Part shown: piece after piece, positions 5,709-37,474 of the stretch
Numbering within the stretch: position 1 is the first letter of the stretch
How the letters are laid out: each line of letters begins with the position of its first letter
Source of the DNA: an uncultured Candidatus Saccharibacteria bacterium
GTDB lineage: Bacteria > Patescibacteriota > Minisyncoccia > Phycocordibacterales > CALRHW01
Assembly (NCBI GenBank): GCA_964441885.1
Contig: CAYTVX010000001.1
Span: 6,559 to 44,032, forward strand
Length of the DNA stretch: 37,474 bases
Direction: 5' to 3'
Made by a program: the position numbers and the translations under genes
Notes under the pieces: generated by a model
What the model was told of the DNA's origin: nothing
Databases searched by the model: none
What the model saw: only the letters and a program-made list of their open reading frames with translations

Positions 5709-8396
5709 CTAAGAGACTGCGTGCAAATGTTTATGTCCCAAACGCCTAACGATAAATTTTCTAAACTCTTCAATAATAATTACAATCGTTGATATTGAAA
5801 TGATAGCAATCCACTCGTTTAAACCCAAAGCTGTAGTATGAAGAATCTTTTGCATAAAGGGTGTATAAACAGCCACAAGCTGTAAACCAACTACAATTAT
5901 AGTCGCACCGACCAGATACCAATTTGAAAATATTCTTTTTGTAAAAATAGAGTTATTTTCTGATCTACAATTCCAAGCATTAAACCACTGAAATACGGCA
6001 AGTGTAGTGAGAGACATAGTCCAACCCATCACCATATCCAATTCATAAACCTGTTTAAATACGTAAAGTGTACCAACCATCATTACCGCACCCATCATAA
6101 TAATTCTAAAAATAGCTGTCCTATCTATAAAAAACTTATTTCGTAAATGTGTGCCAATTTTAGCAAGCTTCTCTCTAGGCTCTAAAGCCATCGCAACCAC
6201 CAAAAATCCGTCTGTTACAAGGTTGAGCCACAAAATCTGACTTGGCAAAAGAGGAAGTGGCATTATGAAACACAAAGCCCCAACCACCACGAGCAACTCA
6301 CCCATACCTGTAGAAAAAAGATAAAGGATGACTTTCTTTATGCTTGCGTAAATATTTCTTCCCTCTTCTATAGCGGCAATAATACTTTTAAAATTATCAT
6401 CAAGTAAAATAATGTCTGCAGCCTCTTTTGTAACCTCTGTACCAATTTTACCCATTGCGATACCCAAATCTGCGGCAACCAAAGAAAGTGCGTCGTTTAC
6501 ACCATCCCCCGTCATAGCAATAATGTCGCCACGCAATTTATATGCCTCAATTATTCTTAGCTTGTGCTCTGGCGTCACTCGCGCAAAAACAGTGACAGCT
6601 CCAATATGATGAGCGAGCTCTTTTACACTCATGCTTTCCAGTTCTTTTCCCATCATCACCCTATCTCCCACATTAAAAATACCAGCTTCCTGAGCAAGAG
6701 CTTCAGCTGTGATCTTATGATCACCAGTAATCATCACTACCTTAATTCCATTTTCTTGCGCCAATCGCACAGATTCAAATACATTTTCCCTAAGTACATC
6801 TCGCATTGCAAAAAGACCCACCAGAGTAAGTGGTGGCAAATTATCAAGCTCCACATCTTCGCCCGCGTTTTCATTTACAGCACAAGCAATCACACGAAGT
6901 CCCCTTCTTGAAAGACTGTGAATTTGTGTTTCAAAAAGATCTTTATCTGCGGGTGATATTTTTTCTTTGCCATTCTTATTCCATACAAACGTTGCAAGTG
7001 AAAGTATCTTTTCTGGCTCTCCAACTATAGTGAGAAACTTTTTTCCTTTTACACTGTGAAGTGTAGTGTGAAATTTTCTTATAGAATCAAAGGCAATATC
7101 CAAAACCCTTGGTTCTTCTTTTTCTAAATCATCTTTATCAAAGCCAACCTTTTCACCAAAAACCAACATTGCCGCTTCGGTAGGATCTCCAGATACTTTC
7201 CACACACCTTCCTTCTCCAAAAAAGAAACACGAGCATCTGCACAAAATGTACCTATTTTCCCCATATAAAGTAACTCTGGATGATTGGCTGGATCTACCA
7301 CCTGTCCATCAAGTTTCACCTCACCACTAGAATCATATCCACTACCATAAACCTCAAACATACTCCCCCCCACAAATACACGCTCAATCATCAACTCATT
7401 CTTTGTAATAGTCCCTGTTTTATCTACAGCAATAATTTTTGCTTGACCAAGCGCTTCCACCGCCTGCAATTTTTTTACCAAAGCGTTGCGCTTTGCCATT
7501 CTATATACACCAGTAGCAAGCACTAAAGTAATGACTATTGGTAAACCCTCTGGAATAAGAGATACGGCAACGGCGACAGAAGTAAGAAACATATCTCTTA
7601 CAGAATTTCCAAAATATATACCCAACACAAACACAAGCGCGCTTATTACCAACACAGCGACACTCAAAAATCTAGACAACTTCTGAATATCTTTTTTTAA
7701 AGGAGCATCAGAATCTATGGTAATAATTTTTTGAGAAATTTTACCTATAACAGTATCCACACCGGTAGATACTACGAGCGCACGAGCAGTACCAGCAACA
7801 ACAAAAGTGCCCTTGAAAGCCATGTTGCGCTGATCTGCTTCTGGAACATCTTTACCCTCAACCACTCCGGATTCTTTTTGTACCGCCAATGATTCTCCAG
7901 TAAGAGCAGACTCATCTACCTTAAAATTGGTCGTCTCTATGAGTCGTACATCCGCTGACAGCTTATTTCCTTCTCGCAATATCACAATATCTCCTACCAC
8001 AAGCTCTTCGTCTAGTACCACCATCTCTCGAGCGTCTCGCACCACCACAGCATCAGTTTTAGTAAAATTTTTTAATGCCGCAAGAGTGTTTTGTGCCTTA
8101 CCCTCTTGTAAAAAACCAATAATGGCGTTGGCAATAAGAACAAATAAAATAATGTACGCATCTACATGCTCACCCAAAAAAAACACAATCACAGCAGAAA
8201 CGAGCAAAATGTATATAAGTGAACTCTGAAACTGTCTTAAAAAAAGCACAATATGACCCTCTACCCGAGCGTCTGGGAGCTTGTTTGGCCCATTTTTTTT
8301 CAACCTTATTTCTACTTCACTCTGTGTAAGTCCATGCGTGTCTGAAAAAAGAGTGGCTAGTGATTCTGATACGGTTTTAGCATACCAATTATTCAT
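5709..8396 (-). CDS. cation-transporting P-type ATPase (P2/Ca2+-type-like)
   Basis: 895 aa with 'LTGES', the phosphorylation site 'DKTGTIT', 'MITGDH', 'TGDGVNDA' and about 10 TM segments. Confidence 0.95.
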   Translation of the reverse strand: MNNWYAKTVSESLATLFSDTHGLTQSEVEIRLKKNGPNKLPDARVEGHIVLFLRQFQSSLIYILLVSAVIVFFLGEHVDAYIILFVLIANAIIGFLQEGKAQNTLAALKNFTKTDAVVVRDAREMVVLDEELVVGDIVILREGNKLSADVRLIETTNFKVDESALTGESLAVQKESGVVEGKDVPEADQRNMAFKGTFVVAGTARALVVSTGVDTVIGKISQKIITIDSDAPLKKDIQKLSRFLSVAVLVISALVFVLGIYFGNSVRDMFLTSVAVAVSLIPEGLPIVITLVLATGVYRMAKRNALVKKLQAVEALGQAKIIAVDKTGTITKNELMIERVFVGGSMFEVYGSGYDSSGEVKLDGQVVDPANHPELLYMGKIGTFCADARVSFLEKEGVWKVSGDPTEAAMLVFGEKVGFDKDDLEKEEPRVLDIAFDSIRKFHTTLHSVKGKKFLTIVGEPEKILSLATFVWNKNGKEKISPADKDLFETQIHSLSRRGLRVIACAVNENAGEDVELDNLPPLTLVGLFAMRDVLRENVFESVRLAQENGIKVVMITGDHKITAEALAQEAGIFNVGDRVMMGKELESMSVKELAHHIGAVTVFARVTPEHKLRIIEAYKLRGDIIAMTGDGVNDALSLVAADLGIAMGKIGTEVTKEAADIILLDDNFKSIIAAIEEGRNIYASIKKVILYLFSTGMGELLVVVGALCFIMPLPLLPSQILWLNLVTDGFLVVAMALEPREKLAKIGTHLRNKFFIDRTAIFRIIMMGAVMMVGTLYVFKQVYELDMVMGWTMSLTTLAVFQWFNAWNCRSENNSIFTKRIFSNWYLVGATIIVVGLQLVAVYTPFMQKILHTTALGLNEWIAIISISTIVIIIEEFRKFIVRRLGHKHLHAVS

Positions 8397-8400
8397 AAAT

Positions 8401-8946
8401 TTATTTTATACTAAAAATTTTAGATCTCTTCTTTTCCGCAATAAAAGTAACTACCATAAGCGCGAAAATTGTGAGCGCCATCACAGGAATAGTAATATAG
8501 CCAAATTCTAAAACGTATTGTTTTGCACAAGCGCCACCATCAGATGTGCAAGGAGTAAACGAATGCCCTCCGAGATTTGTAAAAGAATGATAAAAGGCTA
8601 CGATTCCACCAAGTACAGAAAGCCCATAAGCATAAGGCAGGATGCTTTTATCTTTCCACCAAAAACCCAAACCAAGTAAGACTACTTGTGGATACAAAAA
8701 TAGACGCTGGACCCAACACAATATACACGGCTCAAAACCAACCACCTCAGAATAAATCAGACTCCCCAAAAGACCGCTGAGAGCCAGCAGGAAAGATATT
8801 CCAAGCGCACGCTCTCCCACCCATGACACAGTACGATCGGCAAAACCATTCTTAATCACTAAACATAAAATAAAAAGCACTAAAACGACATCTGCAAATA
8901 GTGTGCCCCAAGAAAATACTGCTGTAACTAATTCAGAAATATTCAT
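8401..8946 (-). CDS. disulfide bond formation protein, DsbB/BdbC family
   Basis: 'SLIYSEVVGFEPCILCWVQRLFLYP' (CxxC) and a second pair in 'PCTSDGGACAKQYVLEFGYITIP' closely parallel Bacillus BdbC. It also has an extra N-terminal TM extension of about 45 aa. Confidence 0.8.
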   Translation of the reverse strand: MNISELVTAVFSWGTLFADVVLVLFILCLVIKNGFADRTVSWVGERALGISFLLALSGLLGSLIYSEVVGFEPCILCWVQRLFLYPQVVLLGLGFWWKDKSILPYAYGLSVLGGIVAFYHSFTNLGGHSFTPCTSDGGACAKQYVLEFGYITIPVMALTIFALMVVTFIAEKKRSKIFSIK

Positions 8947-8956
8947 TTATATAATT

Positions 8957-9325
8957 TTAAGGAAGGGTGCAACTAGTCATTTGAGCAAGCTCCTCCAAAG
9001 AAAGTACCTTTTCTACCCGACTTCCATCCTTAAAGTCCCAAGTTGGATATTTTTTTATATTCTTATCTACACACACCTGCATAGTCCCGTTGCTGTCTGG
9101 AGTAGAACATTCTACATAAGTTAAATTTTTTATTGATTTACCAAACAAAGCCTTTTGATCTCTACAATGCGGACACCAGAATGCTCCGTAAAATATAGCT
9201 CCGCTATCCTTTACGCAAGAGGCAAAACTATCAAGCTTGCCTGGCTTACCAGGAGATTTTACCAGCAAAATCGTTCCAGCAATGATCAATAATATAACCA
9301 CAATAGCAATCAATTTTCCTTTCAT
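8957..9325 (-). CDS. membrane-anchored thioredoxin-like protein (VKOR-associated Trx-domain type)
   Basis: N-terminal TM, then 'FYGAFWCPHCRDQKALFG...YVEC...YPTWDF', a pattern typical of the Trx-like domain fused to bacterial VKOR proteins. Confidence 0.8.
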   Translation of the reverse strand: MKGKLIAIVVILLIIAGTILLVKSPGKPGKLDSFASCVKDSGAIFYGAFWCPHCRDQKALFGKSIKNLTYVECSTPDSNGTMQVCVDKNIKKYPTWDFKDGSRVEKVLSLEELAQMTSCTLP

Positions 9326-31487: not shown

Positions 31488-32513
31488 ATGGAAACAACTC
31501 ATACCGATGATTGCCCAAAGCCTAAAAGGACTTTCTTGAAGTCCCTCGACGGCGTCACGATCGCCCTTTACGGACAAGCAAGCGGTGACTGGTCAACCCG
31601 ATCATGGGAGCCAGACACATCCGTGGAGCTGCGCAACAACCTGCCTACGTATCAGCGATTGAGCAGGATTGGGGAAAAGTTTGGTGCACAAAGCATCTAC
31701 TTCCCCAGACCAGACAAGTTCAACGGCAAGATCGACGCTAGTTGCCTAAACGCCGAATCCGACACCTTGCCAACCGCCGACAAGTGGCACAAGATCAGGA
31801 CAAACGGCAGCAAGACAACCATCTTGCGTGGCCCGTTGGTGGATGGAGCAATCTTCGGCCCAGGCCAAGGATTCTTCATCAACTCAGCGGACTGCCCAAC
31901 GATCGTGGCCCGCTATCTGGGTATGACCATCGCCACACATGCAGGACGAGAATGCCTCTACGACAAGTGCCTTGCGCAAACCGGCAAGAAGACTGAGGGG
32001 CGTGAACACGAAAGCGTCGTCTTTGCCATAGTCGACACGTTCAAGCAACTGGCGACAAAGCGTGGGGTGACTTTTAATCCCAACGGCATCCACGTGTTCA
32101 TCACGTGTGGCATTGCAGGAAAAAACTTCGAACACAGGCTTGACCACCCGAATTTTGGTCCAGCCAACCGAAGGATGATCCCGCACCTGCTTCAGAGTTT
32201 TCCAACGCTGCCGGGGTACCCACACGTTCTCAAACCATTTGAAGCCGGGATGATCTCTCTGCACAATCTGGCCAGAGCTCAGCTCCACATGTGTGGGGTA
32301 CCAGAGATGAACGTGTCGTCAGACGGCATCAACACCTACGATGACATCGTCCCCAGCAGAGCCCACACTAAAAACCGCAAATTCATTTGGCACAGCTACC
32401 GCCGATATGAAGAAGAATGCGCCTTGGAGTGTGCGCAGAGCGGAATGGACCCTTATTCGTTCTCAAGTCCAGAGTGCAGATATCGCAACGGGGTGCTCGT
32501 AGTGTCCCGTTGA
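31488..32513 (+). CDS. divergent YfiH/PgeF-family protein (DUF152, Cu-oxidase_4 / LACC1-like), on a GC-rich insert
   Basis: By-eye alignment to E. coli YfiH blocks: 'FINSADCPTIVA' with 'VMTADCLPVLF'; 'IATHAGRECL' with 'AAVHAGWRGL'; 'ITCGIAGKNFEH' with 'LGPAIGPRAFEV'; 'LHNLARAQLHMCGVPEMNV...TYDD...FIWHSYRR' with 'IYQLARQRLANVGVEQIF...TYTE...FFSYRR'. An SD-like AAGGAAGGAAG lies upstream and the stop is TGA. Confidence 0.7.
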   Translation: METTHTDDCPKPKRTFLKSLDGVTIALYGQASGDWSTRSWEPDTSVELRNNLPTYQRLSRIGEKFGAQSIYFPRPDKFNGKIDASCLNAESDTLPTADKWHKIRTNGSKTTILRGPLVDGAIFGPGQGFFINSADCPTIVARYLGMTIATHAGRECLYDKCLAQTGKKTEGREHESVVFAIVDTFKQLATKRGVTFNPNGIHVFITCGIAGKNFEHRLDHPNFGPANRRMIPHLLQSFPTLPGYPHVLKPFEAGMISLHNLARAQLHMCGVPEMNVSSDGINTYDDIVPSRAHTKNRKFIWHSYRRYEEECALECAQSGMDPYSFSSPECRYRNGVLVVSR

Positions 32514-35457: not shown

Positions 35458-35533
35458 TGGTGCGCGCACTAGGGGTCGAACCTAGGACCTTTCGAGTATC
35501 AGTCGAATGCTCTACCAACTGAGCTATGCGCGC
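35458..35533 (-). tRNA. tRNA-Ile (anticodon GAU), CCA encoded
   Basis: Folded by hand from the minus strand: acceptor GCGCGCA/TGCGCGC, D-arm GCTC-AGTTGGTA-GAGC, anticodon arm TTCGA-CTGATAC-TCGAA, variable loop AGGTC, T-arm CTAGG-TTCGACC-CCTAG, discriminator A and CCA. Confidence 0.9.
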
Positions 35534-35692: not shown

Positions 35693-35938
35693 TTAGGCCG
35701 CAGACGGAGAAGGATCGGACTCCTCCGACATGCCAGCGTTGCGCTCGATTGCGCGAAGCAGAAGTCGTGCTCGGTCACGAATGGAGAGAGGGGTAACGCT
35801 GCTCTCCTCGCGCAACACATCGAGCACGCGATCACAGCAGATCTTCAGAACGTCGGGGTTCTTCTCCAGATCGTCGAGTCGGTCACGAGCTTCTTCAGCT
35901 CGAATCCGGGATACGGAATCAGTCGTGGACTTCTTCAT
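35693..35938 (-). CDS. 81-aa helical, charged orphan protein on a second GC-rich insert
   Basis: This is the most protein-like of four overlapping frames: amphipathic and charged ('RIRAEEARDRLDDLEKNPDVLK...RDRARLLLRAIERN'), with GC-biased third positions and an AAGGA 8 nt upstream of the ATG. I recognise no family. Confidence 0.45.
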   Translation of the reverse strand: MKKSTTDSVSRIRAEEARDRLDDLEKNPDVLKICCDRVLDVLREESSVTPLSIRDRARLLLRAIERNAGMSEESDPSPSAA

Positions 35939-36070
35939 CTAATTGCATCCTTGCATTGTGTGGTATTTTTATTACCACAAAGGAACTGAAAGGTGTGACA
36001 CAGTGTCCCACCGCAAACCAAAGGGTATCATCATAAAACATCAATGTCAAGTTGATACAAATAACGCACA

Positions 36071-36097
36071 AAGAAAAACCGCACACTTTCGTATGCG
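36071..36097 (-). terminator. intrinsic terminator about 160 nt downstream of the 16S 3' end
   Basis: The minus strand reads cgcatac-GAAA-gtgtgcg(g), followed by tttttcttt. Confidence 0.55.
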
Positions 36098-36252
36098 ATT
36101 TTTCTGATACTATTCTTTATTTTGTTCCGTTCACATCGTCTTTCCGACTGTCATGCTACTTTAAGGATGTTTAGCAATAATCCGTTTCTGAGCTCAATTG
36201 AGGCTCAGAAATCGACTGTAAGTTTTGTCACAAAAGTGACAAAACGATTTTC

Positions 36253-37474
36253 ATTTGAAATACTCCACGAGCAGCTTCCGCTACCCGTGCCTTGTTACGA
36301 CTTACTCCCTGTCATTGAGCTTACCTTAGGACCACATACGTGATATTTCGGGTATTCCCAACTCCCTTGAGTTGACGGGCGGATTGCGATAATTAAACAA
36401 CATTTCGCGTTCCCACGTAGCGTGCGGATTTCCCGCACTACGCGAGTCCAACAATTATGCAAATTGCATAAACTATTGGTTTTGTCCTTCCTAAATTTAT
36501 ATTTTGAACCATTATGAAGAGGGAAGGAAGTGATGCTTCTGAAGTGTTTACCCTCAGCTTGGGGAACGTGACCCATGGTTTTTTTATTGAGGTGCCTACC
36601 TCATACACGATCTTCGTTCTTCCCTCCCTCATAATGATCCAAAATAAAATCTAGTACTACGACGCAGCTGACTTCTCATGATACTTATAAATTGTTTTTA
36701 TATCACGAGATCTCCCAAGGGTCAGTAATAATTCTTTTCCCTGCATCCTATTTGAGATTTTTTTAATACTTCCCCATGACTCACCTAATGGGTCGTATCT
36801 CTCTTTTTTTAAATAGGCTGCTATTTGCTACTAGGATCCTTCACCTGCCAGCCTCACGGCCAACCGATTACCCTTTCGCTACTCTCCAAAAAATGGAGGT
36901 GTTGATTTTAACAACATAGATTTATTACCTGCCTGGCGCTTTTAATTCTGAGTACAAGACTTGAGAACGTATTCACCGCAGTATAGCTGACCTGCGATTA
37001 CTAGCAATTCCAACTTCATGGGGTCGAGTTGCAGCCCCCAATCTGAACTGGGGCGACTTTTCTTACGATTAGCTCAGGGTTACCCCGTCGCAACGCGTTG
37101 TAGTCGCCATTGTATTATGTGTGTAGCCCCGGATATCAGAGGGACATGCTGACCTGGCGTCATCCTCGCCTTCCTCCCCGTATATTATGTCCAAAATTTC
37201 TTTTGGGCACACTATACGGGGCAGTCTCGCCTGACAAATATAACAGGCAACAAGGGTTGCGTTCGTTACCCCACTTAAGGGAACAATTCAAACCACGAAC
37301 TGACGACGGCCATGCATCACCTGTCAACTAGTCTTGCGAGGGCCCCGGTTTCTCGGGGCTTTCACGTTGATTTCTAACCTTGGTAAGGTTCTTCGTTTAT
37401 CGTCGAATTAAACCACATAATCCACTGCTTGTGCAAGTCCCCGTCTATTCCTTTGAGTTTTAACCTTGCGGTCG
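36253..37474 (-). rRNA. rrs: 16S rRNA gene, 3' part (E. coli ~895 to the 3' end), interrupted by an insertion; continues beyond the window
   Basis: Conserved blocks on the minus strand include AAACTCAAAGGAATAGACGG, GTGGTTTAATTCGA, GCATGGCCGTCGTCAG, AACGAACGCAACCC, GGCTACACAC, GGAATTGCTAGTAATCGC, GGTGAATACGTTC, CCGCCCGTCA and GTCGTAACAAGG. Helix 45 has a GGAA loop. The 3' end is approximate. Helix 40 carries an expansion of about 30 nt (37166-37222). Confidence 0.93.
36383..36948 (-). other. ~566-nt intervening sequence (putative intron/IVS) within the 16S gene at E. coli position ~1396/1397
   Basis: The universal CTTGTAC(A/T)CA|CCGCCCGTCA is split: cttgtactca ends at 36949 and ccgcccgtca starts at 36382. 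The insert contains GNRA-capped hairpins and long-range complementary G/A- and C/T-rich arms. No convincing ORF is present. The boundaries are uncertain by a few nt. Confidence 0.75.

Follow-up and report, generated by a model that had tools for sequence, protein, structure and literature searches.

Can a bacterial lineage give up the part of its ribosome that recognizes the Shine-Dalgarno (SD) site of mRNAs? Pairing of the SD with the anti-SD at the 3′ end of 16S rRNA is the textbook mechanism of initiation in bacteria, and few segments of rRNA are as highly conserved as the anti-SD. The question was raised by a stretch of 37,474 nt (hereafter the window; positions 6,559 to 44,032 of contig CAYTVX010000001.1, assembly GCA_964441885.1) that ends inside a 16S rRNA gene. 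An initial annotation of the window had noted a 16S tail devoid of CCUCC and had favored the loss or irrelevance of SD pairing. Our analyses indicate that the gene encodes the normal 16S rRNA of a Parcubacteria lineage (GTDB class Paceibacteria) whose anti-SD has decayed and whose native genes start without SD pairing, a reading to which we assign a probability of roughly 85%.

The minus strand of the window was read as RNA for all 16S features. Using cmscan, the gene was identified as a match to Rfam RF00177 over model positions 883 to 1533, with 422.6 bits for a gathering score of 50. The portion that starts at model position 883 and reaches the beginning of helix 44 (CUUGUACUCA) occupies 36949..37474 and is truncated by the contig end at 37474. 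A 566-nt insertion at the base of helix 44 (36383..36948) separates it from the 3′ segment read at 36264..36382, which comprises GCCCGUCA, the 3′ strand of helix 44, helix 45, and the closing GGA and which is 75-99% identical to relatives across the class. Helix 45 (CACGGGUAGC-GGAA-GCUGCUCGUG, 36289-36266) was found intact, as first described, and its GGAA loop together with the covariance match above the gathering score identifies the gene as that of a bacterial small-subunit rRNA. The helix is followed by G36265 and A36264 and then by GUAUUUCAAAUGAAAAUCG at 36263-36245, so that the sequence reads GGAGUAUUUCAAAUGAAAA where that of bacteria is usually GGAUCACCUCCUUUCU. The place held by UCACCUCCUUUCUA in other bacteria is occupied by a 16-nt tail, GUAUUUCAAAUGAAAA (36248..36263). 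There is no CCUCC within ~10 nt after helix 45, where a functional anti-SD would lie, nor anywhere from helix 45 to 36106, a range that includes the trailer half (36134-36106) of the processing helix described below.

The genome that contains the window measures 605 kb in 49 contigs, with 39.5% G+C and an estimated completeness of 91.7%. Its SecA is closest, at 72% identity, to those of metagenome-assembled genomes (MAGs) of Parcubacteria/Paceibacterota (54% for Staskawiczbacteria), and these relatives, with the small genome, place it among the Parcubacteria of the Candidate Phyla Radiation (CPR). The relatives used for comparison have genomes of 0.5-1.1 Mb. The 16S gene is split over two contig ends. 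Contig C20 ends with the leader and the first ~315 nt (the 5′ third) of the gene, its positions 8868-9185 starting with TAAGAGTTTGATCCTAGCTCAG, and the part from model position 883 onward lies at the end of C1, the contig of the window. The two pieces correspond to C20:8771-9185 and window positions 36069-37474, and no piece covering the central part of the gene was found among the contigs.

To compare the 3′ ends of related genomes, a check already proposed with the first observation, the 3′ part was searched by BLAST against 60 relatives, of which 45 gave a match and 30 from the same order had their tails read. All 30, which belong to many families, contain GGA-n-(U/A)A(U/A)UUCAA-n-UGAA, the order-wide form being GGA-n-UAUUUCAA-n-UGAA, and none has CACCUCC. 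UUC and GAA are kept across the order and are weakly self-complementary (UUUC-AAAU-GAAA). In an alignment of 16 genomes from 10 families, columns T40, T43, T44, C45, A47, A52, and A53 are invariant. The CCUCC-less tail is thus a trait of the lineage, neither a product of chance nor an assembly artifact, since it recurs in 30/30 genomes of the order. A gene at a contig end, with a 566-nt insertion missing from the closest relatives, might nevertheless be a chimeric, misassembled, or nonfunctional copy. That explanation is the least credible of those we weighed, because independent genomes of the genus share 94-99% identity in the tail and the sequence downstream of it, which are conserved with covarying stems across the order, and because contigs assembled from four metatranscriptome runs reproduce the tail region but for 1-2 mismatches.

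How the tail might have arisen is suggested by the rest of the class and phylum. An exact search for the canonical end, GTAACAAGG-N22-32-CACCTCC, found it in 196 of 401 genomes sampled in the phylum, in none of 7 of the same order, in 5 of 16 from the rest of the class, and not in the genome under study. We then read the 47 nt that follow GTCGTAACAAGG in a sample of 151 genomes of the class, which gave 83 readable tails. CACCUCC is present in 32 of them (39%), CUCC persists in an altered context in 12 (CAUCUCC or UUCUCC, as in GGAUCAUCUCCUUUCU and GGAUUUUCUCCUUUU), and 39 have no CUCC. The last group is itself graded, with GGAUCACUUCUUAUCUAGAGAA, GGAACAUUUCUUUACUAGAAAU, GGAUUAUUUCCUUUCUGAAAU, GGAUCAUUUCAUUUU, and the GGAGUAUUUCAAAUGAAA of the order studied here, and intermediate tails such as CACUUCUUA, ACAUUUCUUU, UUAUUUCCUUUCU, and UCAUUUCAUUUU occur in sister lineages. 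Because UCACCUCC and GUAUUUCA, compared position by position, differ mostly by C-to-U changes, we infer from this series, rather than from a reconstructed phylogeny, that the tail is a decayed homologue of the anti-SD and the product of neither a deletion nor an insertion. The 16 nt after helix 45 would then be the positional counterpart of UCACCUCCUUUCUA, altered mainly by C-to-U and C-to-A changes and presumably no longer able to pair with GGAGG.

The loss of the anti-SD in this lineage has been known since 2022. Tsurumaki, Saito, Tomita, and Kanai (RNA 28:1041; PMC9297842) detected CCUCCU in only 48% of Parcubacteria and reported anti-SD loss for a subgroup that lacks uL1. The genome described here agrees with that subgroup of the CPR in that CCUCCU is gone from its 16S 3′ end and uL1 was not found in it, and the 32 canonical tails among 83 (39%) compare with their 48%. 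That work dealt with the presence or absence of the motif, whereas the replacement sequence, the intermediates, the structure of the trailer, the statistics of gene starts, and the leaderless signature are added here.

What follows the tail had been read initially as two near-perfect hairpins and then a pyrimidine-rich candidate, AACAUCCUUAAAG, with either loss of the anti-SD or a second 3′-terminal insertion followed by a degenerate tail as the explanation. We found four hairpins with differing stem sequences across genera, based on RNAalifold and on single-sequence folds. The first (hp1, GUUUUGUCAC-UUUU-GUGACAAAAC, 36222..36245) folds in every relative and shows compensatory changes in 5/5 pairs by RNAalifold. 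It is followed by a GUCGAU motif (36216-36211) and hp2 (36211-36185), which together span 36185..36216; the inner CUC-AAUU-GAG is conserved, G86, C88, G89, and T91 are invariant, and seven pairs of hp2 have compensatory changes. The two hairpins initially placed at 36218-36239 and 36177-36203 therefore exist, with coordinates that were a few bases off. hp3 (36154..36176) has a UGCUA/UAGCA stem (36176-36172 / 36158-36154) and the loop AACAUCCUUAAAG (36171-36159). Its stems vary yet pair in relatives (UUGUUG/CAACA, GCUU/AAGC, AGUAGC/GCUACU, UGCCG/CGGCA). The pyrimidine-rich candidate is this loop; it lacks CCUCC, as stated at the outset, and begins ~95 nt after helix 45 instead of ~110 nt. hp4 (GUCG-GAAAGA-CGAU, 36135..36148) has a conserved loop, GGAAAGAC, and its stem is GUCG/CGAU, GUGG/CUAC, GCAG/CUGC, CCCG/CGGG, or UUCG/CGAA in relatives. 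In total, compensatory changes were seen in 13 of 31 pairs predicted by RNAalifold, mostly in hp1 and hp2. No Rfam family matched 36100-36266 at its gathering threshold.

Beyond the hairpins lies the trailer strand of a leader-trailer processing helix, GUGAACGGAACAAAAUAAAGAAUAGUAUC (36106..36134), which pairs with C20 at ~8808-8838 in a 29-bp duplex with a free energy (ΔG) of -55.5 kcal/mol. An inverted copy of the 28 nt at 36133-36106 is present on C20, and four genomes of the genus (G001, G003, G004, and G005) have one ~1.4 kb ahead of the 16S 3′ part. Leader-trailer helices of 26-32 bp (ΔG of -35 to -46 kcal/mol) were found in eight relatives, with compensatory differences between families. 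In Escherichia coli, the leader-trailer stem of the rrn transcripts is cut by RNase III, and the 16S 3′ end is matured by YbeY and exonucleases. The arrangement here is similar, with a long leader-trailer helix around the 16S sequence and genes for RNase III and YbeY in the genome, but 33 nt separate helix 45 from the processing helix in E. coli, compared with ~130 nt and four conserved hairpins here. Members of the class that have retained the anti-SD have a long trailer as well. In those with CACCUCC, it folds into hairpins, contains GGUCG(A/U), and has a distal strand of the AACAAAA type, and the (G/A)UCGA motif is likewise present in trailers of canonical-tail relatives; in one of them (G434), 148 nt lie between CACCUCC and the trailer strand of its own leader-trailer helix. 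The hairpins and AACAUCCUUAAAG are thus the ordinary trailer of a 16S precursor (pre-16S) within its processing helix, and this long folded structure arose before the anti-SD decayed, because canonical-tail relatives have an equally long structured trailer. The proposal of a second insertion with a degenerate tail fails on the same observation, the canonical relatives carrying ~150 nt of structured trailer inside the processing helix. By analogy with E. coli, the ~130 nt after the tail (four hairpins and GUCGAU) would be enclosed by a helix that RNase III would cut, and YbeY and/or exonucleases would produce the final 3′ end, which would in that case lie upstream of the hairpins.

Could the trailer nevertheless be kept as an extension of the mature 3′ end, with the hp3 loop AACAUCCUUAAAG (core AUCCU) serving as a displaced, weakened anti-SD for a few SD-like genes? 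The loop is kept as (A)UCCU(U/A)AA in most members of the genus and of the near family, AAGGAU lies 9 nt before the ATG at 35938, AAGGAAGGAAG precedes the open reading frame (ORF) at 31488, and contigs from RNA libraries reach into the trailer down to 36123. However, AUCCU is confined to near relatives; in other families, the loop is AAACUUUAAAU or AAACUGUAAAU (as in L027 and L020) or AACAUCUUUCAAA, so that the CC is not kept there. Words able to pair with the loop were found upstream of 5.1% of genes, compared with 5.1% far upstream and 5.2% in shuffled sequences, and hp3 was accordingly rejected as an anti-SD. The strongest SD sites of the genome match CACCUCCU and not AUCCUU, canonical-tail relatives have an equally long structured trailer, and the RNA contigs could represent precursor transcripts or DNA present in the libraries. 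We consider a displaced anti-SD very improbable, and AACAUCCUUAAAG is better described as a hairpin loop of a normal trailer than as a displaced tail.

The RNA data consist of assembled contigs from the four metatranscriptome runs, which report neither transcript ends nor levels. One contig of 193 nt (X15) covers 36209-36382 with one mismatch, and another of 151 nt (X20) covers 36123-36263 with two mismatches and carries alleles of the genus mates G001 and G004. Contigs of X18 and X20 extend 130 nt beyond helix 45, where the trailer that they carry differs and belongs to a relative. Among DNA runs, X1-X3 contain 42-93% of the words sampled from the stretch. No RNA run covers 35900-36111 or positions 36430-36906 of the insertion, which is uninformative, as the contig alleles are those of insertion-less genus mates that diverge beyond ~36110.

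We next asked whether gene starts bear the mark of SD pairing. The ORFs were the longest nonoverlapping ones of at least 120 codons, the most upstream start codon being taken as the start, and 512 of them had enough upstream sequence. SD words (GGAG, GAGG, AGGA, or AAGG) were counted at -25 to -3, with -60 to -38 as a far-upstream control. This genome-wide scan, also proposed in the initial annotation, showed no enrichment near starts: 15.4% of ORFs had an SD word there, compared with 17.6% far upstream and 13.1 ± 1.5% in shuffled sequences. The same method applied to 50 kb of E. coli K-12 gave 56.7%, against 21.7% far upstream and 29.6 ± 4.6% in shuffles, indicating that this crude definition of ORFs detects SD use where it is present. 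Base composition pointed the same way, as G fell to 9-13% and A rose to 41-45% at -1 to -12, compared with 33-43% G at -11 to -7 in E. coli. A one-contig genome from another family of the order (G053) behaved similarly, with 12.4% against 11.6%. In the window, the absence of GGAGG upstream of genes was confirmed (0 of 28 long ORFs), 5 of 28 have any four-letter SD-like word, and the only strong SD site is AAGGAAGGAAG, in front of the GC-rich ORF at 31488-32513 on the plus strand. The order-wide tail, the lack of SD enrichment, and the depletion of G all support the preference for loss or irrelevance of SD pairing expressed at first. A new pairing of the tail with mRNA was tried and rejected, as 6-mers complementary to GUAUUUCAAAUG precede 7.0% of genes, compared with 7.3 ± 1.1% in shuffles and 7.4% for a reversed, noncomplementary control. 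Two genomes that keep CACCUCC, G119 and G434, were discarded as positive controls because they showed little SD enrichment themselves, and E. coli was used instead.

How might such genes be started? A TAnnnT motif peaks exactly at -12, in 61 of 512 ORFs for a background of ~17, and the TATAAT peak is also at -12. Starts of this kind include those at 8396 (secA), 29995, 28380, and 25397 in the window and that of prfB on contig C32. A -10 box located 7 nt before the ATG is the classic signature of leaderless transcripts, here read from promoter spacing, and part of the genes would thus produce leaderless mRNAs bound directly at the start codon. The remaining genes have A-rich, G-poor leaders of a type that may be served by bS1, and the genome encodes a bS1-like protein (a 406-amino-acid ORF with three S1 domains). 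Consistent with this picture, prfB is a single open frame, devoid of the SD-dependent +1 programmed frameshift. The -12 peak was also found in G053 (55 of 348) and in G119, a member of the phylum with a canonical tail (46 of 339), and leaderless-type starts seem widespread in the Patescibacteria, beyond the lineages that lack an anti-SD.

Both features have counterparts elsewhere. In Mycobacterium and Deinococcus (PMC3898074, PMC4633059, PMC3160421), a -10 box similarly ends ~7 nt before the start codon, so that transcripts would begin at the AUG, but these bacteria keep a canonical anti-SD and use SD sites for leadered genes. Bacteroidetes (Bacteroidota; Jha et al. 2021, NAR 49:547, as cited in PMC9723584) resemble the present case in their SD-independent initiation, with genes devoid of SD motifs, A-rich, G-poor leaders, and no reliance on SD pairing; they differ in that their CCUCC is kept and sequestered by bS21, bS18, and bS6, whereas the sequence itself is gone here and bS21 was not found.

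Several observations weigh against the interpretation of a decayed anti-SD with SD-independent native genes. First, 43 ORFs have a G+C content of at least 0.47 (ORF mean, 0.398 ± 0.052) and are dispersed as isolated ORFs among 27 contigs that are ordinary in other respects; a match of 5 nt or more to UAAGGAGGUGAUC is present at -22 to -4 in 34.9% of these ORFs, compared with 11.5 ± 4.3% in shuffles, a value that 0 of 300 shuffles reached. The corresponding figures for the other 476 ORFs are 3.4% and 4.9 ± 1.0%. The irrelevance of SD pairing is thus incomplete, in that canonical SD words are well above chance in this GC-rich minority. Second, the starts were set at the most upstream start codon and not by a trained gene caller. 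Third, SD enrichment is small or absent in the two genomes with CACCUCC, G119 (22% against 14%) and G434 (15% against 18%, n = 154), and since these are also little enriched, a genome may be poor in SD motifs without having lost the tail. A shortage of such motifs would thus not by itself show the tail to be nonfunctional. This small sample suggests that SD independence is older than the loss of the tail, with relaxed selection coming first. Fourth, uL1 (PF00687) and bS21 were not found in the genome, which at 91.7% completeness leaves their absence unproven. Five other CCUCC-less genomes, each with a completeness of 98% or more, likewise gave no uL1 (0 of 5), and it was found in 3 of 5 canonical-tail members of the class, a small sample in which it is also missing from two canonical-tail genomes; the genome thus falls into the anti-SD-less subgroup by its missing CCUCCU, with an overlap with the uL1-lacking group. 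Last, the coverage of the trailer by RNA-library contigs is compatible with some of it being kept in mature RNA.

The GC-rich ORFs carry the best SD sites of the genome, AGGAGGUG, AAGGAGG, and GAGGUGA, which match the canonical anti-SD CACCUCCU and not the hp3 loop AUCCUU. Transfer from donors that use SD pairing may have left these sites behind, but they are puzzling, as nothing was found in the genome that is able to pair with them. No Pfam family was assigned to 8 of 10 such ORFs, and the trend was weak in G053 (14% against 5%, n = 21). Examples with AGGAGGTG, AAGGAGG, or GAGGTGA (G+C of 0.47-0.62 for a genome value of 0.40) are found at C15:13067-13573 (minus strand), C4:4774-5589 (plus), C31:5401-6018 (minus), C39:989-1480 (plus), C10:3823-4335 (plus), C12:10516-11712 (minus), and window 31488-32513 (plus).

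An anti-SD might also be supplied by another sequence, namely, by an RNA from an unassembled second 16S gene or from a CACCUCC-bearing piece of an excised insertion. The MAG is in 49 contigs with its 16S gene split between two contig ends, and the 566-nt insertion in helix 44 contains ACACCUCCAUUUUUUGGAGAG at 36905-36885, an anti-SD core followed by its own mimic, which resembles the CACCUCCUUUCUAGGGAG of canonical relatives and of which cmscan aligned 36904-36892 to the 16S 3′ end. We nevertheless judge this origin highly unlikely. Near-complete relatives of the order, including one-contig and two-contig genomes, have one 16S gene of the decayed type and no canonical pattern, and genus mates lack the insertion, as only ~1400 nt separate the leader from the 16S 3′ part in G001, G003, G004, and G005. 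A search for other free-standing CACCUCC-bearing RNAs outside ORFs yielded none that was convincing in the genome, the hits being complements of SD sites, tRNA ends, and terminators, so that ACACCUCCAUUUUUUGGAGAG is the only other candidate. Its presence in the insertion could be due to chance or hint at a foreign origin of the insertion from an rRNA end.

The four closest genus mates (L003-L006), whose tails are 87-99% identical, are devoid of the insertion, which indicates that it is recent or mobile within the genus. RNA-library contigs X15, X18, and X19 join 36382 to 36949, but we did not retain splicing as an explanation, as the short side of the joint comprises only 19-24 letters for a bridging criterion of 31. 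That reading is also undercut by the genus mates that lack the insertion in their DNA, from which the contigs may derive.

A last alternative concerns the sequence immediately downstream of the tail. Downstream of the anti-SD, canonical relatives carry a mimic of it (CCUCCUUUCUAGGGAG), and along the class series the two sides covary (UUCUCCUUUUAAGGAG, UCUCUUUUAAGAGA, CUUCUUAUCUAGAGAA, AUUUCUUUACUAGAAAU, and UUUCAAAUGAAA in the genome studied here). This looks like compensatory upkeep of a 3′-end hairpin, which we regard as a lead and not as a result; it rests on the series of class tails and not on thermodynamics. Within the order, the palindrome of the mini-hairpin UUUC-AAAU-GAAA is kept, but its predicted stability is only -0.2 to -1 kcal/mol, with z near +1, no better than shuffles. 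In a relative with a decayed tail (G254, L165), CACUUAAACA forms a perfect 10-bp stem with the nearby downstream UGUUUAAGUG (ΔG of -12.9 kcal/mol, z of -5.8), and this pairing directly abuts UCGAC; the complementarity between tail and downstream sequence is shorter in other lineages. Maturation in the class may be signaled by a 3′-end hairpin beside the conserved (G/A)UCGA. One can also imagine that the ~130-nt trailer is kept on mature 16S rRNA at the mRNA exit side of the platform, where loops such as AUCCUUAAA of hp3 would act in initiation, including that of the SD-bearing GC-rich genes. In a milder form, which we also treat as a lead, the tail and the next segment would be kept complementary (CUCC/GGAG, UCUCU/AGAGA, UUCU/AGAA, UUUC/GAAA) because maturation would need a 3′-end hairpin and not the anti-SD itself. 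We hold this alternative, in either form, to be very improbable.

If the decayed tail is indeed no longer used for pairing, a large, free-living-sized radiation with a decayed anti-SD would mean that a bacterial cell can run wholly on SD-independent initiation, from leaderless mRNAs and A-rich leaders. To the known loss of the motif, our data add a decayed homologue, intermediate stages in sister lineages, a trailer older than the loss, and a seemingly low use of SD sites even in relatives with an intact CCUCC. For annotation, gene callers built on an SD model and tools that annotate 16S 3′ ends will misplace starts and rRNA ends in such genomes.

The 16S transcription unit ends with a terminator-like hairpin, CGCAUAC-GAAA-GUGUGCG followed by a U run (36070..36097, minus strand), the 3′ arm of which can alternatively pair with the leader. 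No 23S gene lies downstream of 16S, the rRNA genes being unlinked here. Beyond the terminator, we found a tRNA gene (35461-35533, minus strand; Rfam, 74 bits) and a small GC-rich ORF, whose ATG at 35938 has AAGGAU in front of it.

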